Below, piece after piece: positions 1,134 through 44,685 of a stretch of 64,000 nucleotides of DNA (within the stretch, counting starts at the first letter, position 1; every line of letters begins with the position of its first letter). The notes under the pieces were generated by a model that did not search any database, was not told the DNA's origin, and was given only the letters and a program-made list of their open reading frames with translations. Source of the DNA: Steroidobacteraceae bacterium (GTDB taxonomy: Bacteria; Pseudomonadota; Gammaproteobacteria; Steroidobacterales; Steroidobacteraceae); the NCBI GenBank assembly GCA_035263105.1, contig DATFRO010000021.1:41254-105253 (forward strand), given 5' to 3'. Made by a program: the position numbers and the translations under genes.

Positions 1134-1318
1134 CGGGCCTCTCCTGAAGATGGGCGCGCCGCGGCGATTGGCTGTTGGATTGGGCTCGCGGCGCAATGGG
1201 CGCGCATTCTGCCGCGCCGCCGCGGCCTTGCGCAATCCGCAGGTCGAAACGCTGCAGCGGCGCAACAGGACGCTCGAACGCAGGGTCGAGCGCCCGGCGC
1301 TTCAGGGGCGAAAGTGTT

Positions 1319-1708
1319 TCAGGCGAGGGCGTGACGGCGCTGGCGCCGCTCGCGCTGCAGGCGACGATCGGCAATCAGCGGGACGTGATCGCGTTGCCCG
1401 CGATCCTGGCGGCGGCGGCCCGGCCGCGAGCGGCGGTCCGCGTAGTGAACGTAGTAGCAGGTGCAGGTTTCGGCAGTGCAGCCGGGCACCGGGAGGGGCG
1501 GGGCGTGCTTCACCAGGAACCGTCGCCCGCGTACGGCCTCGCAACCCGCACAACACGCGTTATCGCCCCAGGGTTCGACGGCGACACTGTGAAAGCGCTG
1601 CTGCCTGCGAGCGGACCGGGTCGGGCGAGGCGGTGTGAGTACGAACCAGAGAGCTGCGACAGCGAGGCTGATTGTTATTGTTATTGCGCCTATCAGCATG
1701 GCACTCAT
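1319..1708 (-). CDS. hypothetical membrane-anchored Cys- and Arg-rich protein
   Basis: ORF track 129 aa. N-terminal hydrophobic helix MLIGAITITISLAVAALWFVL, then a Cys-rich stretch (CCAGC ... CTAETCTCYY) and an Arg-rich tail. No family recognised. Confidence 0.4.
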   Translation of the reverse strand: MSAMLIGAITITISLAVAALWFVLTPPRPTRSARRQQRFHSVAVEPWGDNACCAGCEAVRGRRFLVKHAPPLPVPGCTAETCTCYYVHYADRRSRPGRRRQDRGQRDHVPLIADRRLQRERRQRRHALA

Positions 1709-4984: not shown

Positions 4985-5572
4985 ATGAGTGCCGTGCGTC
5001 GCCTGTCGATCGGGTTCGCAACGCTGCTGCTCGCGGCGTGTCACTCGCATCCGCCGAAGTCGGATAAGCCCGAGCACGCCTCGAGCGAGATGGTGCTCGC
5101 CGGCCTCAGCAGCTATGCGCGGAACGTGCGCCAGGAAGATGACGCGGGACTCGCCGCCGAGAAGACGCGACTGGATGCGCTGCCCAAATCGGCGGCGCGC
5201 GATCTGCGGCTCGCGATGCTGCTCGACCAGGAACGGAGCGCGCTGTACGACCCGGGGCGCGCCTCGCAATTGCTCGACGATGCGGCGCATGCCAGCGCCG
5301 CGGAGCCCGCGGAGCGCGCCTTCGCGGACATGCTGCTCGCGACCGCGGGCGCCGAGCCGCGCTCCTGCAGCGAAACCGGTTTCACGCAGGACCTGGTGCA
5401 GAAGCTCGCGGACGAGGAGCAGCGGCGCACCGAGCTCACCACGCGACTCGAGAACACGCGCCAGGAGCTCGAGGCCGAGCGCACGCAGCGCGTGAAGCTC
5501 GAGAAGCAGCTCGAGGCGCTCAAGTCGATCGAAACGCAGATCAAGAACCGGGAGAACGATGCGGGGCACTGA
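4985..5572 (+). CDS. qseG: QseG/YfhG-like lipoprotein encoded between kinase and regulator
   Basis: Lipobox LLLAAC. The C-terminal coiled segment QLEALKSIETQIKNRE resembles E. coli QseG KLENLTDIERQLSTRK. Its position between glrK and glrR fits. It abuts the glrK stop and overlaps the glrR start by 14 nt. Confidence 0.65.
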   Translation: MSAVRRLSIGFATLLLAACHSHPPKSDKPEHASSEMVLAGLSSYARNVRQEDDAGLAAEKTRLDALPKSAARDLRLAMLLDQERSALYDPGRASQLLDDAAHASAAEPAERAFADMLLATAGAEPRSCSETGFTQDLVQKLADEEQRRTELTTRLENTRQELEAERTQRVKLEKQLEALKSIETQIKNRENDAGH

Positions 5573-6983
5573 AGTCAGCAGCCAGCCGGCGCGCATCCTG
5601 ATCGTCGACGACGACGTGAAGCTGCTGCGCCTGCTCGCGATCCGACTGCGGCGCGCCGGCTGGATCATTGAGACCGCTGAGGACGGCCGCCAGGCGCTCG
5701 CCGCGATCCCGGGCTTCCGCCCGCAAGTGGTCGTGACCGACGTGCGCATGGGCGGGATGGACGGCATGGCACTGTTCGAAGCGCTGCGTTCGCAGCACCC
5801 GACGCTCCCCGTGATCATTCTCACCGCGCACGGCACGATCCCGGACGCGGTCGACGCCGCGCAGCGCGGCGTCTTCGCCTACCTCACCAAGCCCTTCGAC
5901 AGCGAGCGGCTGACGGAAACGATCGGCAAGGCGCTGCGCGCGTCGGGCTCACAGGGCAACGGCGGTGGCGATGTCGCCGGCCAGTGGCGCGCCGAGATCG
6001 TCACCCGCAGCCCTGCAATGGAGGCACTGCTCGGCGCCGCTCGCAAGGTGGCGCACACCGATTCGAGCGTGCTGATCCAGGGCGAGAGCGGCACCGGCAA
6101 GGAATTGCTGGCGCGTGCCATTCACCGCGCCAGTCGCCGCCACGACCAGCCTTTCATCGCGGTGAACTGCAGCGCGATTCCCGAGGCGCTGTTCGAGTCG
6201 GAGTTCTTCGGCCATCGCAAGGGCTCCTTTACCGGCGCGATCGAGAGTCGCGTGGGCCTGATCCAGTCGGCGCACCAGGGGAGCCTCTTGCTGGATGAGA
6301 TCGGCGACATGCCGCTGACGTTTCAGTCGAAGCTCCTGCGCGCGTTGCAGGAGCGTGAAGTACGCCCGGTGGGCGCGATGGATCCGCTGCCGGTGGACGT
6401 GCGGGTGATCGCGGCGAGTCACCAGGACCTGGAGCTCGCGGTGCGCGAGCGGCGCTTTCGCGAGGACCTCTACTACCGCATCAACGTGGTGACGCTGGAG
6501 ATTCCCGCGCTCGGCTCGCGCCGCGAAGACATCCCGCTGCTCGCGACGCACTTCCTCGCCGCGATCCGCGCCAAGCTCGCCGATACCGCGGTCGACGTGA
6601 GCGGCTTCTCTTCGGAAGCCATGGAACTGCTGGTCTCCGCGCCCTGGCCCGGGAACATCCGCCAGCTCCGCAACGTCGTCGAACAATGCGTGGTGCTCGC
6701 CACCACGCCGCTGATCCCGGCCTCCCTGGTGCAGAAGGCCTTGCGCAGCAAGCCGCGCGAGTTCCTGCCGTTCGCCCGTGCGCGCGACAACTTCGAATTC
6801 GACTACCTCGTGAACCTGCTACAGATGACGCTCGGCAACGTCGCGCAGGCGGCGCGCCTCGCGGATCGCAATCGCTCCGAGTTCTACAAGCTCCTGCGCA
6901 AGCACAACCTCGATCCGCAGGTGTTTCGCAGCGACGAAGGCGCCGCGGCGCCTGGAAAAACCGACCGCCTGGAGCGGCAGTAA
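5559..6983 (+). CDS. glrR: sigma54-dependent response regulator GlrR/QseF (REC-AAA+-Fis HTH)
   Basis: The receiver segment ILTAHGTIPDAVDAAQRGVFAYLTKP is near-identical in pattern to E. coli GlrR ILTAHGSIPDAVAATQQGVFSFLTKP. It also has Walker A GESGTGKE, the GAFTGA-like loop GSFTGA and a C-terminal HTH. Confidence 0.85.
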   Translation: MRGTEVSSQPARILIVDDDVKLLRLLAIRLRRAGWIIETAEDGRQALAAIPGFRPQVVVTDVRMGGMDGMALFEALRSQHPTLPVIILTAHGTIPDAVDAAQRGVFAYLTKPFDSERLTETIGKALRASGSQGNGGGDVAGQWRAEIVTRSPAMEALLGAARKVAHTDSSVLIQGESGTGKELLARAIHRASRRHDQPFIAVNCSAIPEALFESEFFGHRKGSFTGAIESRVGLIQSAHQGSLLLDEIGDMPLTFQSKLLRALQEREVRPVGAMDPLPVDVRVIAASHQDLELAVRERRFREDLYYRINVVTLEIPALGSRREDIPLLATHFLAAIRAKLADTAVDVSGFSSEAMELLVSAPWPGNIRQLRNVVEQCVVLATTPLIPASLVQKALRSKPREFLPFARARDNFEFDYLVNLLQMTLGNVAQAARLADRNRSEFYKLLRKHNLDPQVFRSDEGAAAPGKTDRLERQ

Positions 6984-31397: not shown

Positions 31398-31538
31398 ATG
31401 GCGAAGCGAAAGAAACGGGCGAAGAAACGCACCACGAAGCGCAAGAAGCGCACCGCAGGCAGGAGCCGGAAGAAGAAGACGACTCGACGACGCAGGACCA
31501 GCCGCGGCGAGCCCGACGTCGCGCGGCCGCCGCACTGA
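31398..31538 (+). CDS. possible small (46 aa) extremely basic Lys/Arg-rich protein
   Basis: My own reading; below the ORF-track size cutoff. MAKRKKRAKKRTTKRKKRTAGRSRKKKTTRRRRTSRGEPDVARPPH. An AGGAGAGG Shine-Dalgarno lies upstream. AAG/CGC codon choice fits the genome better than the overlapping acidic frame 31334-31618. Confidence 0.35.
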   Translation: MAKRKKRAKKRTTKRKKRTAGRSRKKKTTRRRRTSRGEPDVARPPH

Positions 31539-31634
31539 GCACCGCCGGTCGATTCCGCGGCGCGCTGCTCGCAGGACACGCGCCGCGGCCCGGCTTCCCC
31601 AGGGAGACACGACAATAATGCTGCGAAGCGCACC

Positions 31635-32276
31635 ATGAACGCGACGGCGGTCCCCGCGTCGCGCGATTCGCTGCCGCTGGTACTGCTGGTCCTGGTCGCG
31701 ATCGCGCTGGCGCTCTCCGCCGTGCACCCGGCCGACCGGATCACCTGGTGGCTGGAGATCTTCCCGATCCTGCTGGTCGTGCCGGTGCTCATCTTCACCG
31801 CCCGGCGTTTTCCGCTCACCCGCCTGCTCTACGTCCTGATCGCGATCCACTGCCTGATTCTCATGGTGGGTGGGCACTACACGTACGCGCAGGTGCCCTT
31901 CGGCTTCTGGCTGCAGGATGTGCTCGACCTGTCGCGCAATCCCTACGATCGCATCGGCCACTTCGCGCAAGGGTTCGTGCCGGCGATCGCGGCGCGCGAG
32001 ATCCTGTTGCGCCAGACCCCGCTCCAGAGAGGCGGGTGGTTGTTTTTCATCGTCTCCGCGATCTGCCTCGCGATCAGCGCCTGCTACGAGTTCATCGAGT
32101 GGCTCGCCGCGGTCCTCGGCGGCGGCACCGCCGAGGCGTTCCTCGGCACGCAGGGCGATGTCTGGGACACCCAGTGGGACATGCTGACGGCGCTGATCGG
32201 CGCGATCACCGCCCAGCTGGTCCTCTCCGGCCTTCACGACCGCTCGCTCGAGCGGCTGCTGGGCCGCAAGAGCTGA
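31635..32276 (+). CDS. DUF2238 (YjdF-like) inner-membrane protein
   Basis: VHPADRITWWLEIFPILLVVPVL ... NPYDRIGHFAQGFVPAI ... EFIEW pattern of the YjdF family. Confidence 0.75.
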   Translation: MNATAVPASRDSLPLVLLVLVAIALALSAVHPADRITWWLEIFPILLVVPVLIFTARRFPLTRLLYVLIAIHCLILMVGGHYTYAQVPFGFWLQDVLDLSRNPYDRIGHFAQGFVPAIAAREILLRQTPLQRGGWLFFIVSAICLAISACYEFIEWLAAVLGGGTAEAFLGTQGDVWDTQWDMLTALIGAITAQLVLSGLHDRSLERLLGRKS

Positions 32277-32279
32277 ACC

Positions 32280-33395
32280 ATGCTCGAGGAACTGCAAGCC
32301 GCGCCCTGGCTGAAGCGCACGATCGTCTCGCTCCTGATCGGCGGCCTGCTGCTCTTGAGCTACGTCGTGTTGCGGCCGTTCCTGGTCCCGGTCATCTGGG
32401 CCATGATCCTGGCGTTCGTCACCTGGCCCTTGTACCTGAAGCTGCGCCGCGCGATGCGCTCGCGCGTCACCCTGTCGGCGCTGACGATGACGCTCCTCCT
32501 CACGATCGCCTTCGTGGTCCCGATCGTCTGGCTCACCTCGCTCATGCGGCACGAAGTGAAGGGCGCCTACGACGTGCTGATCGCGTTCCTGGCGAAGCAT
32601 CCGCAACTGCCGCCCTCGATCCACAACGTGCCCTGGTTCGGCGAGTGGCTGCAGGACATCATCGATCGGCTGGGCCGTGATCCGCAGGCGTTGCGCACCG
32701 AGATCGGCCTCTGGGCCGACCAGTCGCTCGGCGAGATCCGCACGCTCATCGGCGGCGTGGGCCGCAATCTCGCCAAGATCTTCTTCTCGCTCCTCACGGC
32801 CTTTTTCGTGTACCGCAACGGCGAACAGCTGGCGCAGCAGGTGCGTGCGGTGCTGGAGCGGATCATCGGCGATCGCATTCACGACTACCTGAAGGCGATC
32901 GGCGACACGACCGGCGCGGTCGTCTACGGCATCGTGCTCGCCGCGCTCGCGCAGGGCATTCTCGCGGGCCTCGGCTACTGGGTGGCGGGGCTCAAGGCGC
33001 CGGCGCTCCTCGGCGCGATCACCGTGATCGTGGCCCTCATCCCGTTCGGCGCGCCGCTCGTGTGGCTGAGCGCGGGGTTGTGGCTGCTGATGACGGATCG
33101 CACCGGCGCTGGCGTGGGGCTGCTCGCGTGGGGCGCCCTGGCGGTGAGCTGGATCGACAACCTCATCCGGCCGCTCGTGATCAGCAACGCCACCAAGATT
33201 CCCTTCCTGCTGGTGATGTTCGGCGTGCTGGGCGGGATCACCGCGTTCGGGCTGGTCGGGCTCTTCGTGGGGCCGGTGATTCTCGCCGTGCTGATGGCTG
33301 TGTGGCGCGAGTGGCTCCATGTGCCACACCCGCACCTGCATTCCCGGGCCCACCGGGAACAGGCTAGCTTGCCGGAGGACCCGTCCAGGTCTTGA
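32280..33395 (+). CDS. AI-2E family transporter (second copy)
   Basis: Multi-TM protein with ...LIPFGAPLVW... and ...IDNLIRPLVIS... segments typical of PerM/YhhT-like permeases. Confidence 0.8.
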   Translation: MLEELQAAPWLKRTIVSLLIGGLLLLSYVVLRPFLVPVIWAMILAFVTWPLYLKLRRAMRSRVTLSALTMTLLLTIAFVVPIVWLTSLMRHEVKGAYDVLIAFLAKHPQLPPSIHNVPWFGEWLQDIIDRLGRDPQALRTEIGLWADQSLGEIRTLIGGVGRNLAKIFFSLLTAFFVYRNGEQLAQQVRAVLERIIGDRIHDYLKAIGDTTGAVVYGIVLAALAQGILAGLGYWVAGLKAPALLGAITVIVALIPFGAPLVWLSAGLWLLMTDRTGAGVGLLAWGALAVSWIDNLIRPLVISNATKIPFLLVMFGVLGGITAFGLVGLFVGPVILAVLMAVWREWLHVPHPHLHSRAHREQASLPEDPSRS

Positions 33396-35013
33396 CGAGC
33401 GAGCGCCACTTCTCGCGCCAGCCGACACGCTCGTCGGACAAGGTGTCGAGGAAGTCGGCGAGGCGCTTCGACTTCACGATCGTGTACATGGTGATTGCGC
33501 TGGTCGCGAGCAGGATCACGACGAAGAACAGGATGCGCCACCCCAGCGGGCGGTTCGCTTCGGCGATCAGGTTCATCCCGAGGAAGCCGGTCGCCACCGT
33601 GCCGATGAGGCCGAAGATAGTCACCACCGTGAGGCGCAGGATGGTGTTGGCCTGGCGGCGCACGCTGTCGGTGTCGAGGTATTCGTTCATGTCTTCGACT
33701 TCGGCACCCACTTCCTCGTAGAGCGTCTCGGTGCCGAGCTGCTGGCGCAGGCGGTCGAAGATGCTGCGCGCGATGTTCTGGTTCGACAGCTGGTGGAACC
33801 AGTAGCGATGCGTGAAGCGCAGGAAGATCTCCATCGAGGAGCGGATGGCGCGCTTGAACTGGCGCACCGACTCGAGGTCGCCGACTTCGAGCCGGTTCAT
33901 CGCCACCGCCAGCTCGTCCGACATCGAGAGGAGCGCCGCGCGGTGAAAGTGCGCGATCAGGAACAGCAGGAAGTACTGGTGCCGGAACTGGCCGAAGAGG
34001 CCGGTTTCGCGGCCGGTGAAGAAGTAATCGTCCTGCCGGCCGACGACCGCGAGCAGCTGCCCTGTGCAGATGAGGCGCGTGTCGCCGGAGAAGAGGTCGC
34101 CAGCCCGTCCCCAGAAGCGATCGTCGCAATACTCCGCTTCAAAGCTTTCGAGTGACTTGGCCGAATAGGGCAGGGAATCGCGCCCGCCGGGCCGCGTCAG
34201 CATCCCGAGGCGCACGAAGTCCGCGCGTGACAGGTCGCTCGGATCGTCGAAGGACAGGTACGCCATCAGCGGCATCCGGTAGTACTCGAGCTGCCGGTAG
34301 CGCAGCGGTCCCGTCTGTCCCGGGAACTCCAGCACCGCCGGGCGCAGCAGGAATTCCCAGTGCGCCGCGATCGCCGGTGCGCGGTAGCGGCCGACGTGGC
34401 CGAGATACTTCTGCTTGAGCTCGTAGTCGGAGGTCGCGAGCACCTGGCCCGCCTCGTCCAGCCATTCGACGCGCCGCGGGCAATTGCCGCCGTGGCCGTT
34501 GCGCTCCCAGAACGCGGGGTAGGCGCGACCGAAGCGGAACAGCGTGTCCTGCGCCCGATCGAGGCTGATGTCGTTGGCGTGTATCTCGAAGGCCAGCATC
34601 GCGATGTCGGCATCGAGGAAGAAATACAGGTCGGTGTGCGCGACATCGAAGATGACCGACCCGCCGTCGTCATACGTGACGCGCACGCGCGCGATGTCGG
34701 GGCGACGGAACACCCGGATGCTCGGTTCGCCGTGGCGTTGCGAGGCTTCCTGTCCCGCGCTCGAGCCATAGAGGAAGCGCTGCACGTACGGCAGGAACGT
34801 CACGAACTCCTTGTAGTGCCGCTCCTGGAACTCGAGCGGGTCGCTCGAATATTCATCGCGCACTTCGCGCCAGGCACACCCGTCGGTGAGCGTCTCGAGC
34901 GCTTCCCAATGCCGTTGCACCTGCACGCCCGGCTTCAGCGGCATGAGCTGCAGCGGCCAGAGCACGATCTGGCGGAAATGGCGCACGACGATAGGTGCGG
35001 CGGCATCGCTCAT
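33364..35013 (-). CDS. CorA-like membrane protein (GMN motif) with a large unassigned N-terminal cytoplasmic domain
   Basis: The C-terminus TGFLGMNLIAE is flanked by two TM helices (LTVVTIFGLIGTVATGF and ILFFVVILLATSAITMYTIV), as in CorA. The preceding 450 aa or so have no family I can name. Confidence 0.65.
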   Translation of the reverse strand: MSDAAAPIVVRHFRQIVLWPLQLMPLKPGVQVQRHWEALETLTDGCAWREVRDEYSSDPLEFQERHYKEFVTFLPYVQRFLYGSSAGQEASQRHGEPSIRVFRRPDIARVRVTYDDGGSVIFDVAHTDLYFFLDADIAMLAFEIHANDISLDRAQDTLFRFGRAYPAFWERNGHGGNCPRRVEWLDEAGQVLATSDYELKQKYLGHVGRYRAPAIAAHWEFLLRPAVLEFPGQTGPLRYRQLEYYRMPLMAYLSFDDPSDLSRADFVRLGMLTRPGGRDSLPYSAKSLESFEAEYCDDRFWGRAGDLFSGDTRLICTGQLLAVVGRQDDYFFTGRETGLFGQFRHQYFLLFLIAHFHRAALLSMSDELAVAMNRLEVGDLESVRQFKRAIRSSMEIFLRFTHRYWFHQLSNQNIARSIFDRLRQQLGTETLYEEVGAEVEDMNEYLDTDSVRRQANTILRLTVVTIFGLIGTVATGFLGMNLIAEANRPLGWRILFFVVILLATSAITMYTIVKSKRLADFLDTLSDERVGWREKWRSLVKTWTGPPAS

Positions 35014-35138
35014 GAAATCGCTGGCCTCGGTCCGGGGGCGCGGCTATTGCCCTTGTGGCTCGCGCCGGGCCGTAAAGTAGTGCATGCGCCGATCTGCGAC
35101 AATCACAAAATGACGATCGCAGGCACTTCCCGGGGTTC

Positions 35139-36383
35139 ATGAGCACGGCCGGCCGGCACGCGCTGGGCGCTTTGAGCTACCCCAGCTTCGCGCGTTTTCT
35201 CTCCGCCCGATTCCTGTCCACGCTCGCCGTGCAGATGCAGAGCGTCGCGGTTGGCTGGCAGGTCTACGCGATCACGCACGATCCACTCGATCTCGGCCTG
35301 ATCGGCCTCGCGCAGTTCATGCCGTTCCTCGCGCTCATCCTGATCGCGGGGCAAGTGGCGGACCGATACGACCGGCGGCTGATTCTCGCCGGCTGTTTCG
35401 CGATCGAGGTGCTGTGCGCACTGCTGTTGCTCGCGTTCACCTTCAGCGGTCTTGAGGTCGTCTGGCCGGTGTTCGCGGTGCTGGTGTTGTTCGGTATCGC
35501 GCGCGCTTTCAGCATGCCGACGTCCTCGGCGATCACGCCCAACCTGGTGCCCATCGAACGGTTCGGGAACGCGGTCGCGCTCAACTCCTCGACGTTCCAG
35601 GTCGCGACGATCGCGGGCCCCACCATCGGCGGCCTGCTCTACATCTACGGACCGCATGTCGTGTACAGCACGGTCGCGGTCATCCTGACCGTCTCCGTCG
35701 TGCTGATGGTCATGGTGAAAGTGCCGCGCGTCGTGCGGTCGGCAGAGCCGACGACCTGGCACACGGTGCTCGAGGGACTGCGCTTCGTACGCTCGCGCCC
35801 GGTGGTCCTCGGCGCAATCTCGCTCGACCTCTTCGCGGTCCTCTTCGGAGGCGCGACCGCACTTCTGCCCGCGCTGGCGAGTGACGTCCTGCACGTCGGG
35901 CCGACCGGTCTCGGCTTCCTGCGCACGGCGCCCGGACTCGGTGCGGCGCTCACAGGACTGCTGCTCGTGATGGCCCCGGTGTCGCGCGACGTGGGGCGCT
36001 GGATGTTCGGCGGCGTGGTGCTGTTCGGTATCGCGACCATCGTGCTCGGCGTCTCGGAATATTTCGCGGTCTCGATGGCGGCGCTGTTCCTGCTCGGCGC
36101 GGGCGACATGGTGAGCGTCTACATCCGCCACGTGCTGGTGCAACTGGAAACGCCGGATGCCATTCGCGGCCGGGTGAGCGCGGTGAACGCTGTCTTCATC
36201 GGCGCTTCCAACGAGCTCGGCGAGTTCGAATCGGGTGTGACTGCGGTGTGGTTCGGCTTGCGGCCCGCGGTGGTGATCGGCGGCATCGCGACGCTGTGCG
36301 TCGCCGGCCTCTGGTCGCGCTGGTTCCCGAGCTTGCGCACCGTGGATCGATTCCCTGGCTCCGCGCCCCCGTCACAGCCCTGA
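35139..36383 (+). CDS. MFS transporter
   Basis: 414 aa, 12 predicted TM helices, with GQVADRYDRRLIL after TM2 (MFS motif A). Confidence 0.8.
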   Translation: MSTAGRHALGALSYPSFARFLSARFLSTLAVQMQSVAVGWQVYAITHDPLDLGLIGLAQFMPFLALILIAGQVADRYDRRLILAGCFAIEVLCALLLLAFTFSGLEVVWPVFAVLVLFGIARAFSMPTSSAITPNLVPIERFGNAVALNSSTFQVATIAGPTIGGLLYIYGPHVVYSTVAVILTVSVVLMVMVKVPRVVRSAEPTTWHTVLEGLRFVRSRPVVLGAISLDLFAVLFGGATALLPALASDVLHVGPTGLGFLRTAPGLGAALTGLLLVMAPVSRDVGRWMFGGVVLFGIATIVLGVSEYFAVSMAALFLLGAGDMVSVYIRHVLVQLETPDAIRGRVSAVNAVFIGASNELGEFESGVTAVWFGLRPAVVIGGIATLCVAGLWSRWFPSLRTVDRFPGSAPPSQP

Positions 36384-36419
36384 GCGCTTGCGCCACGTAT
36401 AGAAGAGTGGCGTATACTC

Positions 36420-36435
36420 CTGTATATCCGTACAG
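36420..36435 (+). promoter_or_regulatory. LexA (SOS) box of the E. coli/Pseudomonas type
   Basis: CTGTATATCCGTACAG = CTGT-N8-ACAG inside the longer palindrome CCTGTA-N6-TACAGG. It is immediately preceded by TATACT (36413-36418, -10-like) and lies 11 nt before ATG 36447. Confidence 0.65.
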
Positions 36436-36446
36436 GATGCCTTCCC

Positions 36447-38561
36447 ATGCCGATCGATCCAGGAATCCGCAAGGGGCGCGGTGCCGGCTCCAATCCCGAG
36501 GGGCGCTTTGAATCCCGCCGCACTGAGGCGGTCGACGACGGCTGGCCGCAGGAACTCGCAGACGAATTGCCGCCGCTCGAGACGACACTCACTCCCGAGC
36601 ACGCGAAGCACGTCATCACGCGCAACAACTCACCCGACATCGCGTTCGAGCAATCGATCAACCCGTACAGGGGTTGCGAACACGGCTGTGTGTACTGTCT
36701 AGGGGGTGAGACACAGATACTGATGGGCGATGGCACCACCAAGGCCATTGCGGACATTCGACTCGGCGACGAGATATACGGCACTGAGAAGCGTGGCCAC
36801 TATCGGCGCTACGTAAAGACCACGGTTCTGGCTCACTGGAGCACTCGCAAACCGGCTCATCGAGTGTGCCTGGCCGATGGCACGGAAGTGATTGCCAGTG
36901 CGGACCATCGTTTTCTGACCGAGCGCGGGTGGAAGTTCGTCGCGCAGGGGGGTGGAGGACAAAGACCCTACCTGACTCGCAACAACTCACTCATGGGTTT
37001 TGGTCTCGTTCGAACATCCTCCTGCACCGAGAGCGCGGCGTACCGTCGCGGATATCTGTGCGGTGTGATCCGTGGTGATGGCCGCATCGGGGCCTATCAC
37101 TACCAGGGGCCTGGACGCTCGCACGGCGACCAGTATCGGTTTCGACTGGCCATGATCGACGGCGAGCCGCTGGAGAGAACACGCCGCTACCTGGCAGAGT
37201 TCGGCATCGGAACTGACGTCTTCCTCTTCCAGGCCGAGCGTCCGAATCGTCGCAGGATCGAGGCCATCCGAACCAGTGCGCGAGCCTCGGTGGAAGCGAT
37301 TCAGTCGTTGATCCAGTGGCCGGACCGAACTGATGACGAATGGACGCAAGGTTTTGCAGCCGGAATCTACGACGCGGAAGGCTCATTCGGCGATGGGATT
37401 CTGAGGATCGCAAATGCCGATACCAGAATGATCGAGACGACAACGATTGCTCTGTCCCGCCTGGGATTCGACGCCGTCGTGGAGATGACACGCGCACGTT
37501 TGTCGCGTCCGATGTATTACGTCCGCGTCCGGGGCGGACTGCGCGCTCACCTGCGCTTCATGCAGTCGTGCAATCCGGCCATCGCTCGCAAGCGTTGTGT
37601 AACAGGGCAGGCGGTCAAGTCACGCGCCGAACTCGACGTCGTGGCGGTCGAAGGATTGGATGAGCGTCAACTGTTCGACATCACCACTGGAACCGGCGAC
37701 TTCATCGCCAACGGCGTCATCAGCCACAACTGCTACGCCCGTCCGGCGCACGCATACATGAATCTCTCGCCCGGGCTCGATTTCGAAACCAAGATCTTCT
37801 ACAAGTCGCGCGCGGCGCAGTTGCTGGAAGACGAGCTCACCAAGCCCGGTTACGTCTGCAAGCCGATCAATCTCGGCGCGAACACCGATCCGTATCAGCC
37901 GGCCGAGCGCAAGCTCAGGGTGACGCGCTCCGTGCTCGAGGTGCTGCAACGATTTCGTCATCCGCTGACGATCGTCACCAAGTCCGCACTCGTGGAACGC
38001 GACATCGACATCCTCGCCGACATGGCGCGCGATGCACTCGTCTCGGTCTTCGTCAGCATCACCACGCTCGACCCGGCGCTGAAGCGCGGCCTCGAGCCGC
38101 GAGCGCCGGCGCCGCTCGCAAGACTCGGCGCCGTGAGAAAGCTGAACGACGCCGGGATTCCGGTCGGCGTGTTCGTCGCGCCGATCATTCCCGCCGTCAA
38201 CGATCACGAGATCGAAGCCATCCTCGAGGCCTGTGCCCAGGCCGGCGCCCGGACGGCAGGCTATGTCATGTTGCGCTTGCCTTACGAAGTGAAGGACCTG
38301 TTCCGTGAGTGGCTGGCGAATCACCTGCCCGAGCGCGCCGATCACGTTATGTCGCTGATTCGCGCCATGCGGGACGGGAAGGATAACGATCCGCGCTTCG
38401 GCTCGCGGATGAAGGGACAAGGCGCCTACGCGGAGCTCATCGGCCGGCGATTTGCAGTGTGCAGCCGCCGTTTGGGCCTCGATCGCGGCCGCGCGCTTCA
38501 GCTTTCGACCTGCCATTTCCGCTCGCGGGCAGCCGCCGGTGGTCAGCTCGACCTGATCTGA
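36447..38561 (+). CDS. PA0069-family radical SAM protein (SplB/COG1533-like), interrupted by an intein
   Basis: The exteins read ...NPYRGCEHGCVY | CYARPAHAYMNLSPGLDFETKIFYK..., which restores the CxxxCxxC radical SAM motif when residues 84-428 are removed. The C-terminal extein is collinear with PA0069-type proteins. Confidence 0.85.
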   Translation: MPIDPGIRKGRGAGSNPEGRFESRRTEAVDDGWPQELADELPPLETTLTPEHAKHVITRNNSPDIAFEQSINPYRGCEHGCVYCLGGETQILMGDGTTKAIADIRLGDEIYGTEKRGHYRRYVKTTVLAHWSTRKPAHRVCLADGTEVIASADHRFLTERGWKFVAQGGGGQRPYLTRNNSLMGFGLVRTSSCTESAAYRRGYLCGVIRGDGRIGAYHYQGPGRSHGDQYRFRLAMIDGEPLERTRRYLAEFGIGTDVFLFQAERPNRRRIEAIRTSARASVEAIQSLIQWPDRTDDEWTQGFAAGIYDAEGSFGDGILRIANADTRMIETTTIALSRLGFDAVVEMTRARLSRPMYYVRVRGGLRAHLRFMQSCNPAIARKRCVTGQAVKSRAELDVVAVEGLDERQLFDITTGTGDFIANGVISHNCYARPAHAYMNLSPGLDFETKIFYKSRAAQLLEDELTKPGYVCKPINLGANTDPYQPAERKLRVTRSVLEVLQRFRHPLTIVTKSALVERDIDILADMARDALVSVFVSITTLDPALKRGLEPRAPAPLARLGAVRKLNDAGIPVGVFVAPIIPAVNDHEIEAILEACAQAGARTAGYVMLRLPYEVKDLFREWLANHLPERADHVMSLIRAMRDGKDNDPRFGSRMKGQGAYAELIGRRFAVCSRRLGLDRGRALQLSTCHFRSRAAAGGQLDLI
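36696..37730 (+). mobile_element. class 1 intein (345 aa) with LAGLIDADG homing-endonuclease domain
   Basis: It starts with CLGGETQILMGDGT (block A Cys1), has block B SADHRFLTE, two LAGLIDADG motifs (YLCGVIRGDGRIG and FAAGIYDAEGSF), and ends FIANGVISHN followed by the +1 Cys. Codon usage is visibly more A/T-ending (cta, aca, ata, gta, aaa) than in the flanks. Confidence 0.85.
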
Positions 38562-38585
38562 AAGTGACAAAACGTGGGCTTCGGA

Positions 38586-38606
38586 ACCCGTGATGCATTC
38601 ACGGGT
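38586..38606 (+). terminator. hairpin after the radical SAM gene
   Basis: ACCCGTGA-TGCAT-TCACGGGT, an 8-bp stem 25 nt after the stop. There is no U-tract, so it is only a candidate. Confidence 0.35.
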
Positions 38607-38706
38607 CTACGATCGACGAAGCTTCACGTATACTGGCTGCAAAACCGGCCCAACCAGCGCGGCGAAGCTTTTCCTTCAATCCGTGCGTGTTCGGCTCGGG
38701 GGCTCC

Positions 38707-39426
38707 ATGAGCTGCACAGAGCGTCCGAATTTTTCTTCCTTCGACGGCCTCCCGCGCGTCGTTCCGGTTGCGGCGTTCCTGGCGTTGAGCCTCGCGGGTT
38801 GCATGCGTGCGCAGGTCGTGGAAAGCCGCGAATTCGCGACCCAGATCAGCAAGGACGAAGGCGTCGTGCTGCTTGCGAAGCCGCACGTCGAAGGCACCGG
38901 CACCGAGGAAGATTTCACCGACTGCGTCGCCTCGGATCTCTCGCGTGGCAAGTCATCGTTCCGTGTCGACGACAATCACAAGTTTGTCGACGCGCTGTTC
39001 CCCTGGTTCGAGCCCTCGACCGCACCGACGCGACCCGAGGGGCTGACCAGCCTCCTCAACAAGCCGCGCGTCGCGGAACGGCTCGCCGAAACCGGTGTCC
39101 GTTATGTCGTGTGGTTCGACGGTGAGACGCGCAAGACCGATGGCGGCGGCAGTATCGCCTGCGGTGCCGGGCCCGGCGGCGCCGGCTGTATCGGCTTCGG
39201 CTGGTGGGAAAAGGAATCCGATTACGTTGCTACTGTGTGGGACCTGAAGGAAACCCGCTCGGCTGGCACCGTGAGCACGAATGTGACAGGCACGTCCGCG
39301 CTGGTGGGCGCCATCATCCCGTTGCCGTTCATCGCGCGTGTGCAGGGCACCGCCTGCAATCGCATGGCCGACCAGCTGCGCTCTTTCCTGCGAGGCGATG
39401 ACCTCGCGGCGTCCTCCGCCCAGTGA
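38707..39426 (+). CDS. lipoprotein, first gene of the 12-gene operon
   Basis: Signal and lipobox VAAFLALSLAGC. No family recognised. The ATG at 38707 is preferred to the alternative start at 38590. Confidence 0.65.
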   Translation: MSCTERPNFSSFDGLPRVVPVAAFLALSLAGCMRAQVVESREFATQISKDEGVVLLAKPHVEGTGTEEDFTDCVASDLSRGKSSFRVDDNHKFVDALFPWFEPSTAPTRPEGLTSLLNKPRVAERLAETGVRYVVWFDGETRKTDGGGSIACGAGPGGAGCIGFGWWEKESDYVATVWDLKETRSAGTVSTNVTGTSALVGAIIPLPFIARVQGTACNRMADQLRSFLRGDDLAASSAQ

Positions 39427-39435
39427 GACCCTGAT

Positions 39436-41040
39436 ATGCGAAATCGCCTCATCGCCCTCTTCGTCATCGCAGCCCTGCTCGCTGCCTGCACCGGCATGCA
39501 GACCCAGGGCGGTGGCTCGTCCGGCGGATCTTCCGGCGGGTCCTCAGGCGGATCATCCGGATCCTCGGGTGGATCCTCAGGCGGTTCGTCGGGTTCCTCG
39601 GGTGGGTCTTCGGGCTCTTCGGGTGGCTCATCGGGCTCGTCAGGCGGGCAGACTGGGTCCTCCGGCGGATCGTCAGGCGGTCAGTCCGGCGGATCCTCGG
39701 GCGGCGATTCGGGTTCCTCAGGTTCTTCGGGTGGATCGGCTGGTACGGCGGGACCGCCGAGCTGGCCGAGCCCCAATGACTCCCCCAACGGCAGCTCGAA
39801 TGGCAGTGCCGGTGGGAGCGAGGGCGGCGGTAGTGATTCCCCGGGCGGCGGATCAGCAGGCACGGCAGGACCGCAGAGCTGGCCGAGCCCCAATGACTCG
39901 AGTGGCGGCAGCTCCGACGGCAGCGCTGGCGGCGGGTCCGAGGGCGGTGGATCTCAGTCCTCGACGACGTCCAGCAATGGCGGCGGCAGCAGTTCCGGCG
40001 CCGCGGGCGGCCAGGCGGGCAGTAACAGCTGGCCCTCTGGCGACAGCTCTTCGGGCGGCACCTCAGGGTCCGCGGGCGGCCAAGCCGGTGCTCAGGGCTC
40101 CGGTGGTCAGCAAGGCACGGACGGCCAGTCCGGAACGAGCGGTGGCGCCGGTGGCCCGTCAGGAAGCATGGGCGGTCAGCAAGGCGGCGGCGGCCAGCAA
40201 GGGAGCGGTGCGTCAGCGCAGTCCGCTGGAGCCGGCGGCCAGCAGGGCGCAGGTGCGGGTGGTGCCGGAGGCGCTGGTGGACAGCAGGGTGCCGGAGCCT
40301 CAGGAGCCGGAGGACAACAGGGCGCGGGCGCCGCAGGCGCCGGTGGCCAACAGGGTGCAGGTGCTGCGGGCGGTGGTCAGGCGGGCGTGAGAACCGCATC
40401 GGCCGGCGCCGGTGGCGCGATGAGTGGCGCCGGTAATGCCGGAGCGGGCGGCGTGGAGGGCCAGAACGGTGGTCCGGGACAGGGCCCCAACATGCCGGGC
40501 GGTGGCGGCGCACAGACCGATGCGGAACGCACGGCCGCTGCGAATGCGGCGATGGACGCCTCCCTCGGCGACTTCGACGAGAAGATCCGCAAGGAGCGCG
40601 AGCGGATTGCCAAGGAGCGCGATGCCGAGGCGGCGAACTCGCACGGCGCTTCCGGGGACTCGAGTGGCAGCAACGGCAGCTCGCCGGTCAGCGAAGGCGG
40701 CGGCGGCGCGGGGCGGCCCGGTGGCAATGACGGTGACCTGCGCTCCACGGGCGCAGGTTCTACGGGCGCCGGCGGCACGCCGGGCGCGGGTGGCGCATCC
40801 GGTTCTCCGGGCGGCACGAATTCTTCGGAGAAGGGCGGGCACGGTGGCGGTGGTGGCACCGGCGGCGGCGGCGGCAAAGGCGGCGGCGGCCCGAACTCCA
40901 CGCCCAAGAACATCCCGGATGGCAGTGACGATGACACGATCGCACGCCAGATTCGCGAAGCGGCGGAGAAGGAAACGGATCCGGAGCTCAGAGACAAGCT
41001 CTGGAAGGAATACATCGAGTACAAGAAGAACGCGCACTAG
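39436..41040 (+). CDS. lipoprotein with a Gly/Ser/Gln/Ala low-complexity region of about 330 aa and a charged helical C-terminal domain
   Basis: Lipobox LLAAC, GGSS-type repeats, two copies of a roughly 39-aa unit containing SAGTAGP(P/Q)SWPSPNDS, and GGQQGAGA repeats. The C-terminus is DDDTIARQIREAAEKETDPELRDKLWKEYIEYKKNAH. Confidence 0.7.
   Translation: MRNRLIALFVIAALLAACTGMQTQGGGSSGGSSGGSSGGSSGSSGGSSGGSSGSSGGSSGSSGGSSGSSGGQTGSSGGSSGGQSGGSSGGDSGSSGSSGGSAGTAGPPSWPSPNDSPNGSSNGSAGGSEGGGSDSPGGGSAGTAGPQSWPSPNDSSGGSSDGSAGGGSEGGGSQSSTTSSNGGGSSSGAAGGQAGSNSWPSGDSSSGGTSGSAGGQAGAQGSGGQQGTDGQSGTSGGAGGPSGSMGGQQGGGGQQGSGASAQSAGAGGQQGAGAGGAGGAGGQQGAGASGAGGQQGAGAAGAGGQQGAGAAGGGQAGVRTASAGAGGAMSGAGNAGAGGVEGQNGGPGQGPNMPGGGGAQTDAERTAAANAAMDASLGDFDEKIRKERERIAKERDAEAANSHGASGDSSGSNGSSPVSEGGGGAGRPGGNDGDLRSTGAGSTGAGGTPGAGGASGSPGGTNSSEKGGHGGGGGTGGGGGKGGGGPNSTPKNIPDGSDDDTIARQIREAAEKETDPELRDKLWKEYIEYKKNAH
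39508..40500 (+). repeat. coding low-complexity / tandem-repeat region (GGS, GGQQGAGA units), including a tandem duplication of about 117 nt at 39727-39960
   Basis: Read directly from the translation of 39436-41040. Synonymous codon variation between repeat units suggests the repeats are maintained at the protein level rather than arising from recent slippage. Confidence 0.8.
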
Positions 41041-41063
41041 TTGAGGTCGAGGATCAAGGAATC

Positions 41064-42359
41064 ATGACGGCTCTCAGGTTCACGCATTGCGGATTCGGCC
41101 GGGCGGCAGCCGTTTCCTTCGCACTGCTGCTCCTCGCCGCGCTGTCGGGATGCGTCGTCGAGGAAACGCGGCCCCTGCCCAAGGTGCACGCGGTGCAGGC
41201 GAAAGAGGAAATTCCGGCCGACGAGCTGCTCGATGTCGGCGTACGCATCTTCGATCCGGGCATTCCACCCGAGGTGGAGACCGACCCGACGGCCCAGGAG
41301 AAAGAGGGCATCTATCCCGACGTGCGCCGCGCCGAGGCGCGCTACATGTCGATGCTGCTCCGGAACACGCTCGAGACCACGGCGCAGTGGGGCGCAGTGC
41401 GCGTGATCCCTGCGACCGCCGAGTTCGTCGATGTGCTGGTCACCGGCAAGATCGTGAAGTCCACCGGCAAGGAGCTCGAGCTCCTCATCACCGTGCGCGA
41501 TTCGACCGGCCGCACCTGGTACACGGAAAAGAAATACGAACAGGAAGCGGACCTCGGCTCCTATCTGAGCGATGCGGCGCTCAAGGCCCGCGATCCGTTC
41601 CAGAACATCTACTCGACGATCGCGAACGACATGCTCGCGTTCCGCAACACGATCCCCGAGCCCGACCGGCGCATGGTTCGGCGCGTGACCGAGATGCGCT
41701 TCGCGCAGGACCTGGCCCCGAACGCCTATTCGGACTACGTGGTGCAGGACAAGGAAGGCCGCTACACGCTCAAGCGCCTGCCCGCGGATGGCGACCCGGT
41801 GTTCGAGCGCGTGCAGAAGGTCCGCGAGCGCGACGGCGCGCTGATCGACACCGTGAGCGACTACTACGGCAACTTCTACGATCACTTGAGTGAGCCGTAC
41901 GGCAACTGGCGCCGCTACAGCTATGACGAGATCAACAAGGAAGAGAAACTGAAGTCACAGGCGCGCACGCGCATGATCATGGGTGCCGCCGCCGTGCTCG
42001 GCAGCATCCTGGTGTCTTCGCAGTGCCCGGGCTCGGACTACAACTGCCGGCGCGTTGAGAGTGCGGTGCGCACGGCCGGCACCCTCGGCGGCATCGCCGG
42101 GATCATGAGCGGCCTGAAGAAGAACGCGGATGCAAAGATTCACACTGCGGCGATCAAGGAACTCGCGACCTCGTTCCAGACGGAAGTCGCGCCACAGGTG
42201 GTCGAAGTGGAAGGTCGCACCCTCAAGCTGACCGGCACGGCCGAGGACCAGTATCGCGAGTGGCGCGAGATGCTCAAGCAGATGTATATCGAGGAAACTG
42301 GCGGCGCGACCAACACGACGATCGCCGCGGGTAGCCCGACCACTACGACACCGCGTTGA
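41064..42359 (+). CDS. lipoprotein (431 aa) with a C-terminal Gly-rich hydrophobic segment
   Basis: Lipobox AALSGC, the later hydrophobic stretches MIMGAAAVLGSILV and GTLGGIAGIMSGL, and a Thr-rich tail. No family recognised. Confidence 0.65.
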   Translation: MTALRFTHCGFGRAAAVSFALLLLAALSGCVVEETRPLPKVHAVQAKEEIPADELLDVGVRIFDPGIPPEVETDPTAQEKEGIYPDVRRAEARYMSMLLRNTLETTAQWGAVRVIPATAEFVDVLVTGKIVKSTGKELELLITVRDSTGRTWYTEKKYEQEADLGSYLSDAALKARDPFQNIYSTIANDMLAFRNTIPEPDRRMVRRVTEMRFAQDLAPNAYSDYVVQDKEGRYTLKRLPADGDPVFERVQKVRERDGALIDTVSDYYGNFYDHLSEPYGNWRRYSYDEINKEEKLKSQARTRMIMGAAAVLGSILVSSQCPGSDYNCRRVESAVRTAGTLGGIAGIMSGLKKNADAKIHTAAIKELATSFQTEVAPQVVEVEGRTLKLTGTAEDQYREWREMLKQMYIEETGGATNTTIAAGSPTTTTPR

Positions 42360-42366
42360 GCTTCAT

Positions 42367-44685
42367 ATGCCGGGTTTGAACAGCGGGCAGCAACTGTCCG
42401 GGCGGTACAGTTTGCGCGAGCGACTCAGCGCCGGCCCGCTGGGTGAGACCTGGCGCGCACACGATTCCCAGCTCGATCGCGAAGTGGTCATCCGCCTGCT
42501 GCCGCAGGTGGCTCCCGCTGCGCTCGCGAGCGCGAACGCCGAGCTCGCGTCGGCCGAACAGCTCGATCCCGCCAGCATCGGCGCCGCGCGCAGCATCGAG
42601 CGCGATGGCGAGCAGCTCTACCTGGTTCGCGACTACGTTCCCGGCACCGATGTCTCCGCACTGCGCGCGGGCTCCTGGCGCGTCATCGCTTCCGCGGTGG
42701 CGGGAGCCGCGGACGCCCTCGCGAGGCTTCACCAGGCGGGACGCGTCCATCGCGACATCAAGCCCGGCAACATCGTGCAGCGACCGGATGGATCGGTGGC
42801 CCTCATCGATTTCGGCAACGCGGCGCTCGAGGGCGCGAACGCGCCGCACGGCGCGCTGTCGCGCTACAGCGCCAGCCCGCAACAGCTGGCCGGCGAGCCG
42901 GCGACGGCCGCCGACGATGCGTACGGCCTGGGTGCCGTGCTCTATGAGTTGTTGAGCGGCTACCCGCCGTTCTATCCGAATTTCAGCCGCGAGCGCGTGC
43001 TCTCCGAAGCGGTAGCGCCGCTCAAGCCGGCGCAGCCCGCGCCGCAGCCGCTCCTCGACCTGACCCTGCGGCTGCTGGCGAAGTCACCGGCCGAACGTCC
43101 CAGCGATCTCGCGCAGCTCGCACAGCAACTGCGTGAGCTGGTGAAGGGTGCAAACGACAGCGTCGCGAGCCCGAGCCGCGCGGCGGCCGGCTCGGATGCG
43201 GCGCCGGTCGTGACCATCGTGCGTCCGATCCTGCGTCCGGCCGCGCAAGGCGAGCGTACGAAGGCGGCGGCGGGTCCGCAGCGCCGCTGGTTGATCGGCG
43301 CCGCGTTCGCGCTGCTCGTGCTGCTCGCCCTCACGGTGCTGGTCGTGCTGCCGAGGTTCGTGCAGCGGCCGGCGGCCACGAGCACTGCACCCACCACCGC
43401 GAAGACTGCGCCCGCGCCCAAGCCTGCAGAGCCCGTCGAACCGGACCTGCGCACGCTCGCCGAGCAGATGCAGGAGGCCGAGCAGGTGCGCGACCAGTAC
43501 GACTCGCTCTACGAGTCGCTCGACAAGCGCGCCGTGAAAGAGTGGGCGCCGCAGCCCTTTGCCGCTGCGACCCACCACGGCGAAGAGGCGCGCAAGCACT
43601 ACTCCGTGCGCGAGTTCAAGGAATCAAAGGACGCGTACACCGCCGGCCTCGAAGAGCTGCGCAAGGCCGACGCGCTCGCCGAGCCGACGCTGCGCACGCA
43701 GATCGAAAAAGGCGAAGCCGCCCTCGTCGCCGGCCAGTCGGCCGCCGCACAAGCAGCCTTCACGCTCGCACTCAAGATCGATCCCGCGAACGCCGCTGCG
43801 ACCAGGGGCCTCAAGCGCGCGGGCACGCTCGACCAGGTGAACGCATTGCTGGCTAATGCGGCGAGCGCGGAGCGCACCGGCCAGCTGCCGCTCGCTGTGC
43901 AGCAGTTCGAAGAAGCCCTCAAGCTCGATCCCGACACGACAGCGGCGCGCGATGGCGCCGCACGCGTGCGTGCGCGCATCTCCGGCGACCAGTTCGCGGC
44001 CGCGATGTCGCAGGGGCTGGCACAACTTTCGGCGGGCAAGCTCGACGCGGCACGCGCGGCGTTCGAGCGTGCCAAGGGCATTCGCCCGAACGCACCGGAA
44101 GTGACCGATGCCTTGAACCAGGTCGCGCAGCAGCAGACCACGCTCACCATCGCGCAGCGTCGCGAGCAGGGAGAAAAGTTCGAGCACATCGAGCGCTGGG
44201 ATCTCGCCGTGGCCCAATACGATGCGGCCCTGAAGCTCGATCCGGGTCTCGAGTTCGCGCTCGCGGGCCGTGCCCGTGCCGCTCCGCGCGCGGAAATGGC
44301 CCAGCAGCTCGATGCGGTCATCAAGCAGCCGGAGCGGCTCCTCTCGGCCTCGGTGCGCGAGCAAACCAAGGCCTTGGTGGCGGCGGCGAACAAGGTCGAT
44401 CCGCAGGGCCCGCTGCTGCGCCAGCAGGTGACGACGGTGACCGCGAGCCTCGCCCAGTTCGAGGCGCCGGTGCGCATCGCGCTGGAATCGGATAACCAGA
44501 CGCAGGTGGTGATTCACCGCGTCGGTCAGCTCGGCATGTTCGACCACCGTGAGATCGACCTGCAGCCGGGCACTTACACGGTGATGGGAACCCGGGTCGG
44601 GTATCGCGATGTCCGCCGCGAGATTACAGTGATACCCGGGAAGGCACTCCCGCCCCTCATCGTGCGCTGCGAGGACCGCATTTGA
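42367..44685 (+). CDS. atypical Ser/Thr kinase-like protein: kinase domain - TM - TPR repeats - C-terminal PEGA-like domain
   Basis: HRDIKPGNIV and DFG are present. The Gly-loop is degenerate (SAGPLGE) and the VAIK lysine is replaced (VVIRLL). TM: WLIGAAFALLVLLALTVLVVL. TPR-like repeats follow, ending with PGTYTVMGTRVGYRDVRREITV. Confidence 0.8.
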   Translation: MPGLNSGQQLSGRYSLRERLSAGPLGETWRAHDSQLDREVVIRLLPQVAPAALASANAELASAEQLDPASIGAARSIERDGEQLYLVRDYVPGTDVSALRAGSWRVIASAVAGAADALARLHQAGRVHRDIKPGNIVQRPDGSVALIDFGNAALEGANAPHGALSRYSASPQQLAGEPATAADDAYGLGAVLYELLSGYPPFYPNFSRERVLSEAVAPLKPAQPAPQPLLDLTLRLLAKSPAERPSDLAQLAQQLRELVKGANDSVASPSRAAAGSDAAPVVTIVRPILRPAAQGERTKAAAGPQRRWLIGAAFALLVLLALTVLVVLPRFVQRPAATSTAPTTAKTAPAPKPAEPVEPDLRTLAEQMQEAEQVRDQYDSLYESLDKRAVKEWAPQPFAAATHHGEEARKHYSVREFKESKDAYTAGLEELRKADALAEPTLRTQIEKGEAALVAGQSAAAQAAFTLALKIDPANAAATRGLKRAGTLDQVNALLANAASAERTGQLPLAVQQFEEALKLDPDTTAARDGAARVRARISGDQFAAAMSQGLAQLSAGKLDAARAAFERAKGIRPNAPEVTDALNQVAQQQTTLTIAQRREQGEKFEHIERWDLAVAQYDAALKLDPGLEFALAGRARAAPRAEMAQQLDAVIKQPERLLSASVREQTKALVAAANKVDPQGPLLRQQVTTVTASLAQFEAPVRIALESDNQTQVVIHRVGQLGMFDHREIDLQPGTYTVMGTRVGYRDVRREITVIPGKALPPLIVRCEDRI

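Follow-up and report, generated by a model that had tools for sequence, protein, structure and literature searches.

A probable class 1 LAGLIDADG intein before the third cysteine of the radical SAM cluster motif in a PA0069-family gene of a Steroidobacteraceae bacterium

A gene from a Steroidobacteraceae bacterium (assembly GCA_035263105.1, contig DATFRO010000021.1, positions 41,254–105,253) encodes a radical S-adenosylmethionine (SAM) protein that is divided by a 345-residue insert with the features of an intein. The 64,000 nucleotide (nt) stretch analysed is termed the window, and positions are counted from its first nucleotide unless another contig is named. The open reading frame (ORF) extends over 2112 nt without interruption (Table 1). 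The insert is in frame with the flanking sequences, the exteins, and has neither a start codon of its own nor an internal stop. At the upstream junction the protein reads ...INPYRGCEHGCVY and continues as CLGGETQILMGDG, with the insertion lying between Tyr83 and the third cysteine of CEHGCVYC. At the downstream junction, ...DFIANGVISHN is followed by CYARPAHAYMNLSPG.

An initial annotation, made by a model from the sequence alone, had proposed that an intein lies inside the radical SAM motif and that removal of residues 84–428 restores CEHGCVYC. This proved exact to the base. Deletion of the insert in silico gives a 359 amino acid (aa) protein that contains CEHGCVYC and reads ...GCEHGCVYCYARP..., and the junction peptide of the predicted ligated product is GCEHGCVYCYARPAHAYM. 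The literal CxxxCxxC pattern persists in the precursor (C77, C81, C84), where Cys1 of the intein fills the place of the third cysteine.

The host protein belongs to the PA0069 family. The spliced form scores 511.4 bits against the NCBIfam model for PA0069 family radical SAM proteins (NF033668; cut-off 360) and aligns in a single stretch over model positions 1–347/348; the unspliced precursor aligns in two stretches with 493.5 bits, also above the cut-off. Pfam Radical_SAM matches the spliced form with 59 bits. The Rv2578c model NF038135 gives 230 bits for the spliced form and 224 for the precursor, both under its cut-off of 430. Model NF038136, which describes intein-containing Rv2578c family radical SAM proteins, gives the precursor 492 bits and its cut-off of 700 is not reached, because the exteins are those of the PA0069 branch. 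The window protein works like the intein-containing Rv2578c proteins, yet it is outside that family. The initial name for the host, PA0069/SplB-like, is therefore right for PA0069, and right for SplB at the level of the COG and the fold but not of the family: the spore photoproduct lyase model TIGR04070 gives 14 bits versus a cut-off of 400. An AlphaFold model of a natural intein-less homologue, P0121 (mean pLDDT confidence 76.6), which is described below, has spore photoproduct lyase 4FHC as its nearest solved fold in Foldseek, with a template modelling (TM) score of ~0.5 and 17% identity. A sequence search of solved structures gave nothing useful for the host family. The insertion site had been called the most conserved spot of the enzyme, and the most conserved 12-aa windows of the host family do lie there, with values of 0.985 (SINPYRGCEHGC) and 0.95.

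Block A, block B with its SADHRF sequence, two LAGLIDADG motifs, the terminal His-Asn and Cys+1 are all found where the initial annotation had placed them (Table 1). The insert alone matches the intein part of NF038136 (model positions 76–334) with 236 bits and an expectation (E) value of 8e-70, and it also matches the intein parts of DnaB, RNR, RtcB and DnaE models. The endonuclease domain is recognized by Pfam LAGLIDADG_3 (PF14528; 32.2 bits, gathering score 22.5), and phmmer matches both Hint halves to gp41-1 and DnaB mini-inteins. The suggestion that Hint and LAGLIDADG models would detect the insert is thus borne out by NF038136 and LAGLIDADG_3, and the predicted fold is that of the intein-endonucleases. 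An AlphaFold (AF2) model of the intein, based on 104 aligned sequences, has a pLDDT of 95.7 and a predicted TM score (pTM) of 0.90. Its top Foldseek matches are PI-PfuI (1dq3), the TliVMA intein (7qsu) and PI-SceI (1vde), with probability 1.00, and the central endonuclease domain superimposes on I-DmoI with a target-normalised TM score of 0.78 and a root mean square deviation of 3.0 Å.

The insert also differs from its host in codon usage, as had been noticed from the sequence. The insert has a G+C content at third codon positions (GC3) of 0.68 and the exteins one of 0.81 (Fisher p = 2e-4), and likely coding frames across the window have a median of 0.84. The GC3 of the intein is below that of the exteins in 19 of 19 related loci.

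Table 1. Coordinates of the intein-containing gene, its parts and neighbours in the window, and of inteins at the same motif position on other contigs
Feature	Position	Strand	Remarks
PA0069-family radical SAM precursor gene with intein	36447–38561	+	704 aa plus stop; from the ORF list
N-extein, aa 1–83	36447–36695	+	Ends ...YRGCEHGCVY; coordinates from translation
Cluster Cys77	36675–36677	+	In N-extein; Cys-7 relative to intein
Cluster Cys81	36687–36689	+	In N-extein; Cys-3 relative to intein
Intein, residues 84–428	36696–37730	+	345 aa, 1035 nt; class 1 type (Cys1 ... His-Asn)
Block A (CLGGETQILMGDG)	36696–36734	+	Cys1 (nt 36696–36698), predicted nucleophile of the first splicing step
Block B (VIASADHRFLTERGW)	36888–36932	+	Contains SADHRF and the conserved His (intein His71); from sequence
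LAGLIDADG homing endonuclease domain	37011–37595	+	Intein aa ~106–300, nested in the Hint fold; Pfam LAGLIDADG_3
LAGLIDADG motif 1, YLCGVIRGDG	37053–37082	+	
LAGLIDADG motif 2, GFAAGIYDAEG	37350–37382	+	
Blocks F and G (LFDITTGTGDFIANGVISHN)	37671–37730	+	Block F Asp (LFDIT); terminal His-Asn (VISHN; His344, Asn345)
C-extein, aa 429–704 plus stop	37731–38561	+	Starts CYARP; coordinates from translation
Cys+1 (Cys429)	37731–37733	+	Predicted second splicing nucleophile; third Cys of CX3CX2C after splicing
CorA-like gene, 549 aa	within 33364–36383	-	Upstream of the radical SAM gene
MFS_3 transporter gene, 414 aa	within 33364–36383	+	Upstream of the radical SAM gene
Unclassified radical SAM gene	L139: ~1–1580	-	330-aa LAGLIDADG intein ending Lys-Asn
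SPASM/CXXX-repeat peptide-maturase-like gene	L120: ~4900–6650	+	TIGR04115, 330 bits; 149-aa mini-intein
QueE-like gene	L148: ORF containing 6077–6120	-	165-aa mini-intein
Phage-type radical SAM gene, 658 aa	L205 (viral contig IMGVR_UViG_3300007775_000023): 2357–4333	+	phrog_13321; distantly COG1533-like

Empty sites at orthologous loci define the element precisely. The initial annotation had suggested an alignment of the spliced sequence with intein-less PA0069 proteins, and this alignment is ungapped. P0121, an intein-less protein of 359 aa, and the spliced product share 91% identity over 359 of 359 aa; P0121 has identical residues at the junction and the same start, MPIDPG, as the window protein. 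On its contig, L084, synteny extends over window positions 31442–36697 and 37729–43713. Four more intein-less contigs (L020, L021, L022 and L025) are syntenic on both sides of the gene, over window positions ~33.5–41.7 kb. The flanking DNA alignments of these five loci stop at 36697/36698 and restart at 37729, and thus the 1035 nt are an exact presence/absence polymorphism.

The intein is found at the same codon in L003, a Steroidobacteraceae metagenome-assembled genome (MAG), where the extein is 88% and the intein 76% identical to those of the window. Another 16 Steroidobacteraceae or gammaproteobacterial genomes have an intein of 346–357 aa at this codon. These 17 genomes beyond the window all carry a full-size intein (345–357 aa), uninterrupted ORFs and complete C-exteins. 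Intein presence is nevertheless patchy among Steroidobacteraceae, close relatives included. The protein database was also ranked by similarity to the C-extein, a measure independent of the intein; 102 of the best 120 clusters lack the intein and 18 (~15%) show an intein junction.

A search with the intein only finds 2747 proteins at E ≤ 1e-5. Among the best 120 of these, wherever junctions are present, the intein is at CxxxCxx/C (a slash marks the insertion point), and the hosts are of the PA0069 type (CEHGC../CYARP) and the Rv2578c type (C.HAC../CFAR). Source names of the intein matches include Actinomycetota, Acidobacteriota-type bacteria, Armatimonadota, Beta- and Gammaproteobacteria, and one Halobacteriales MAG. 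The window intein is a near-constant 50–57% identical to related inteins whatever the host. A neighbour-joining tree of 85 inteins is star-like, with PA0069-type and Rv2578c-type inteins in mostly separate groups and few exceptions. Recent transfer between the two families was considered, but the near-constant identity is better read as old divergence.

All 240 proteins that comprise the best 120 from each of the two protein searches are at most 603 aa in length, whereas intact precursors have 650–705 aa, and many of them carry no other name than 'LAGLIDADG family homing endonuclease, partial'. It might be thought that the short proteins represent pseudogenes. This was rejected, as two that were checked are frameshift-split genes in metagenome assemblies, and genome contigs show intact ORFs. 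In two very long metagenome contigs (L001:4001–5982 and L002:4001–6225, of 2.8 Mb and 0.5 Mb), intein-containing Rv2578c-type genes have each been called as two genes that overlap or adjoin. The splits look like frameshifts, and may be assembly indel errors or real pseudogenes.

Conservation was counted over 104 aligned homologues, and lower denominators refer to those that cover the column. The initial annotation had named homologues without splicing residues as a sign of a degenerate insertion, and none was found at the key positions: Cys1 is kept in 92 of 92 and Cys+1 in 103 of 103, and the block B His, the block F Asp, the penultimate His and the terminal Asn are each present in 104 of 104. 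Thr6 of block A is likewise invariant (94/94). The catalytic Asp and Glu of the LAGLIDADG motifs are each kept in 103 of 104. Relative to L003, at a synonymous divergence (dS) of ~0.8–1.0, the ratio of nonsynonymous to synonymous divergence (dN/dS) is 0.09 for the exteins and 0.14 for the whole intein; within the intein it is 0.10–0.11 in the Hint lobes and 0.175 in the endonuclease domain. These low values in both parts of the intein indicate that both activities are under purifying selection.

Some related copies have lost endonuclease functions. In two PA0069-family genes the intein at this site is a mini-intein, of 152 aa in L024 (2872–4521, + strand) and of ~146 aa in P0174; in both, the deletion of the endonuclease domain is clean and the splicing blocks are intact. 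In L007 (1948–4059, + strand), motif 2 reads DAGGS instead of DAEGS and the catalytic Glu is lost; judged by this substitution, the intein is probably endonuclease-dead. The mini-inteins and the Glu-less copy are typical stages of a homing cycle.

The steps of splicing can be outlined from the established class 1 pathway. The 704-aa precursor would be translated as a whole, and Cys84 (Cys1) would convert the Tyr83–Cys84 bond to a thioester by an N-S acyl shift. Cys429 (Cys+1) would then attack the thioester to give a branched intermediate by trans-thioesterification, Asn428 would cyclise with release of the 345-aa intein, and an S-N shift would yield the 359-aa enzyme, in which the [4Fe-4S] cluster would have Cys429 as its third ligand. 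The initial annotation held that no cluster could form before splicing. This is plausible, in that the α-helix that follows the motif would be displaced by 345 residues, and the precursor would then be inactive; the reasoning has to be qualified, as the sequence of the precursor retains CxxxCxxC by way of Cys1. The freed intein, or the precursor, would cut intein-less alleles site-specifically and so bring about homing. Homing would explain why the distribution is patchy and why the element resides in codons that are the most conserved and the least easily deleted. Conserved sites are the usual refuge of inteins, since any imprecise deletion at such a site kills the enzyme.

The profiles, the predicted fold, the invariant residues and the empty sites together make it highly probable that the insert is a canonical class 1 intein with a two-motif LAGLIDADG homing endonuclease, placed in frame before the third cysteine of the CX3CX2C [4Fe-4S]/SAM motif of a PA0069-family (COG1533) gene. 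Several observations weigh against this interpretation. The Thr position of block B (TxxH) is occupied by Ser in 86 homologues, by Gly in 17 and by Asn in one, and the window intein has Ser; replacement of this Thr is tolerated in other inteins. Pfam Intein_splicing and Hom_end_hint score under their gathering thresholds, and thus it is NF038136, together with the predicted fold and the block residues, that assigns the insert to the Hint superfamily. When the window was compared with L003 (with intein) and L084 (without intein) by nucleotide identity in sliding windows near the junction, no co-conversion tract appeared, nor did any other direct sign of recent homing. In addition, the exteins of these three loci are about equally diverged (82–83.5% nt identity), so that gain and loss of the intein are indistinguishable. 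Finally, the literature searched contains no experiment on splicing or DNA cleavage by any COG1533 intein.

The position before the third cysteine is occupied in other radical SAM families as well. Metagenome contigs were scanned with a degenerate pattern, C-N-x-x-C-x-[YF]-C followed by x3-[DE]-T, which leaves out COG1533 hosts. Among the matches listed there are at least three genuine inteins before the third cysteine of CX3CX2C (L139, L120 and L148 in Table 1), and many more such cases probably exist. Over its full length, the L139 intein shares 30% identity with that of the window (E 4e-43). There is also a viral contig, L205, whose phage-type radical SAM gene has the junctions NPYRGCGHKCAY/C...SHN/CYVPK. 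Its intein is 46% identical to that of the window and lies at the same site, and the gene adjoins a ParB-like/DNA-methyltransferase gene. Such a virus-borne copy could be a vector of horizontal spread. Phage and plasmid collections yielded only distant inteins, in other hosts. Across the radical SAM superfamily, inteins thus recur at the codon of the third cysteine; the hosts in which it is occupied are PA0069-type, Rv2578c-type, QueE-like, SPASM peptide-maturase-like, unclassified radical SAM and phage-borne proteins.

One sequence from the phage and plasmid collections has an unrelated insertion site. Rctr197k_024 of virus Rctr197k (KX853510.1; L083:292–3561, + strand) is annotated as 'radical SAM protein-like protein'. 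It has no CxxxCxxC motif and appears by eye to be of helicase type, and the radical SAM annotation is probably wrong. Its intein is 27.5% identical to the window intein and is located at ...QRY/CLPGEAPV...ATKN/CEGHKG.

The presence of inteins in several families of radical SAM enzymes, each time at exactly this place in the motif, raises the question of whether the intein is conditional, i.e. whether it has a regulatory function in addition to splicing. The four clustered cysteines Cys-7, Cys-3, Cys1 and Cys+1 could hold the precursor unspliced, either by a disulfide between Cys-3 and Cys1 or between Cys1 and Cys+1, or by an iron-sulfur (Fe-S) cluster, iron or zinc bound to the pseudo-CX3CX2C motif that Cys1 completes (C77-x3-C81-x2-C84). 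Maturation of the oxygen-labile enzyme would then be confined to reducing, iron-replete conditions. There are precedents. MoaA is a radical SAM enzyme. According to the review passages that treat the Pyrococcus abyssi MoaA intein, a native disulfide between Cys-3 and Cys1 blocks the first splicing step until it is reduced (Callahan et al., 2011; PMC3922620, PMC10663303). In Mycobacterium smegmatis DnaB intein 1, zinc binds the initiating cysteine and inhibits splicing (PMC7360933). In the present family Cys-3 and Cys-7 are both kept in 91 of 91 homologues, but these residues are required by the host, and thus their presence says nothing of selection for regulation. The distribution also argues against the proposal, as ~85% of the closest homologue clusters lack the intein and presence is patchy even in close relatives, as is characteristic of a selfish element. 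Moreover, purifying selection on the endonuclease points to ongoing mobility and not to domestication. We therefore consider a regulatory role of the window intein improbable.

The proposal can be widened, in that the codon before the third cysteine may be a superfamily-wide landing site at which the four cysteines control splicing according to their redox state or to the iron, Fe-S cluster or zinc that they hold. The Cys-3/Cys1 pair suggests that the P. abyssi intein lies within a MoaA cluster motif, at the same position, and archaeal MoaA would then probably be a further occupied host. If the wider proposal were true, such inteins would serve as post-translational switches by which oxygen-labile enzymes are kept from maturing early, and would not be purely selfish elements. 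It is a speculative idea, with the odds well against it.

Less credible still is a degenerate, non-splicing insertion that leaves a pseudogene or a permanently interrupted, inactive protein. Two related copies, P0035 and P0059, are frameshift-split, and the L007 intein lacks a catalytic Glu. However, P0035 and P0059 come from long-read metagenome assemblies and their frameshifts could be long-read indel errors. The window ORF itself is uninterrupted with every splicing residue intact, the low dN/dS of intein and exteins has been maintained since divergence from L003, and 17 other genomes have intact full-length ORFs. A degenerate insertion is thus very unlikely. An element that acts at the DNA or RNA level can be set aside almost entirely. 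It is true that free-standing genes and group I introns also encode LAGLIDADG endonucleases, and that several relatives are entered only as 'LAGLIDADG family homing endonuclease, partial'. However, the insert keeps the reading frame, has no start or stop of its own and shows Hint blocks A, B, F and G with Cys1, His-Asn and Cys+1, and an Rfam scan of the 64-kb window found no family anywhere, group I and II introns included, which removes the intron reading. An assembly chimera is excluded, as the same architecture recurs in more than 100 metagenomic proteins and in 17 genomes that were assembled independently.

The surroundings of the gene are conserved among the relatives, and include the CorA-like and MFS_3 genes, the radical SAM gene and hypothetical genes. 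The order CorA-like, MFS_3, radical SAM recurs in gene calls of the intein-less contig L084. Downstream, at 39436–41040 (+ strand), there is an ORF of 534 aa, rich in Gly and Ser and of low complexity, whose N-terminus resembles that of a lipoprotein (MRNRLIALFVIAALLAAC); it has 73–76% GC and no Pfam match. Alignments to L003, L020–L022, L025 and L084 break inside this ORF, at ~39.9–40.5 kb, which indicates that the Gly/Ser repeat region is hypervariable among relatives.

With an in-frame intein as the most probable interpretation of the window gene, several consequences follow for annotation and experiment. Precursors of ~700 aa are being named after the intein, with relatives entered in databases as LAGLIDADG endonucleases (above) or as 'DNA repair photolyase'. 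The intein-aware model of NCBI covers only the Rv2578c branch, and thus the PA0069 branch is without one. The COG1533 intein is extended from Actinobacteria to Gammaproteobacteria, and the third cluster cysteine of radical SAM enzymes emerges as a site that inteins enter repeatedly, virus-borne ones included. The locus also offers a natural test bed: an intact full-size intein, the mini-inteins of L024 and P0174, and empty alleles with 91% identity. It could be asked there whether a cluster-binding CxxC beside Cys1 makes splicing dependent on redox state or metal, as claimed for P. abyssi MoaA. Natural mini-inteins of 146–165 aa may in addition be of use to protein engineers.

Among solved structures, PI-PfuI, PI-SceI and the Tli and Pho VMA inteins resemble the window intein in fold (Foldseek E 3e-15 to 1e-11), and I-DmoI and the solved intein-endonucleases likewise have two LAGLIDADG helices with Asp and Glu. 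The solved intein-endonucleases differ in that they show 12–20% sequence identity to the window intein and have unrelated hosts, and in size, with 345 aa for the window intein versus 454 for PI-PfuI and 425–430 for PI-SceI chains. The mycobacterial SufB and DnaB inteins are likewise bacterial and of class 1, with catalytic cysteines that are sensitive to oxidants or zinc, and SufB ties inteins to Fe-S metabolism; however, these have other hosts and sites, and no cluster-ligating motif is interrupted. The P. abyssi MoaA intein is closer in setting. It also has an oxygen-labile radical SAM host, and it combines Cys1 with an extein Cys-3, which corresponds to C81-V-Y-C84 of the window protein; it differs in host family and in domain of life, the host being an archaeon.

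The closest known relatives are the 'SplB' inteins of Actinobacteria, represented by NF038136. The literature found on inteins in radical SAM proteins consists of the table of one survey and the review passages on MoaA. The survey tabulates 48 'SplB'/COG1533 inteins, from Actinobacteria only, and its main text leaves the radical SAM motif unmentioned (Novikova et al., 2016; PMC4760082). The initial annotation did not count this host and site among the standard examples; in view of this table and of NF038136, that impression has to be corrected. The 'SplB' inteins are homologous to that of the window (236 bits; 50–57% identity to metagenomic C.HAC../CFAR copies), have the same insertion point before the third cysteine of CX3CX2C, and share the architecture of a Hint domain with a two-motif LAGLIDADG endonuclease in 340–350 aa. 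The window host differs in that it belongs to the sister family PA0069 (NF033668) and not to Rv2578c, and comes from a gammaproteobacterium of the Steroidobacteraceae as opposed to the Actinobacteria of the 2016 table. The kind of intein is therefore already known; the novelty lies in the host branch and the phylum, and in the fact that the site is described explicitly.

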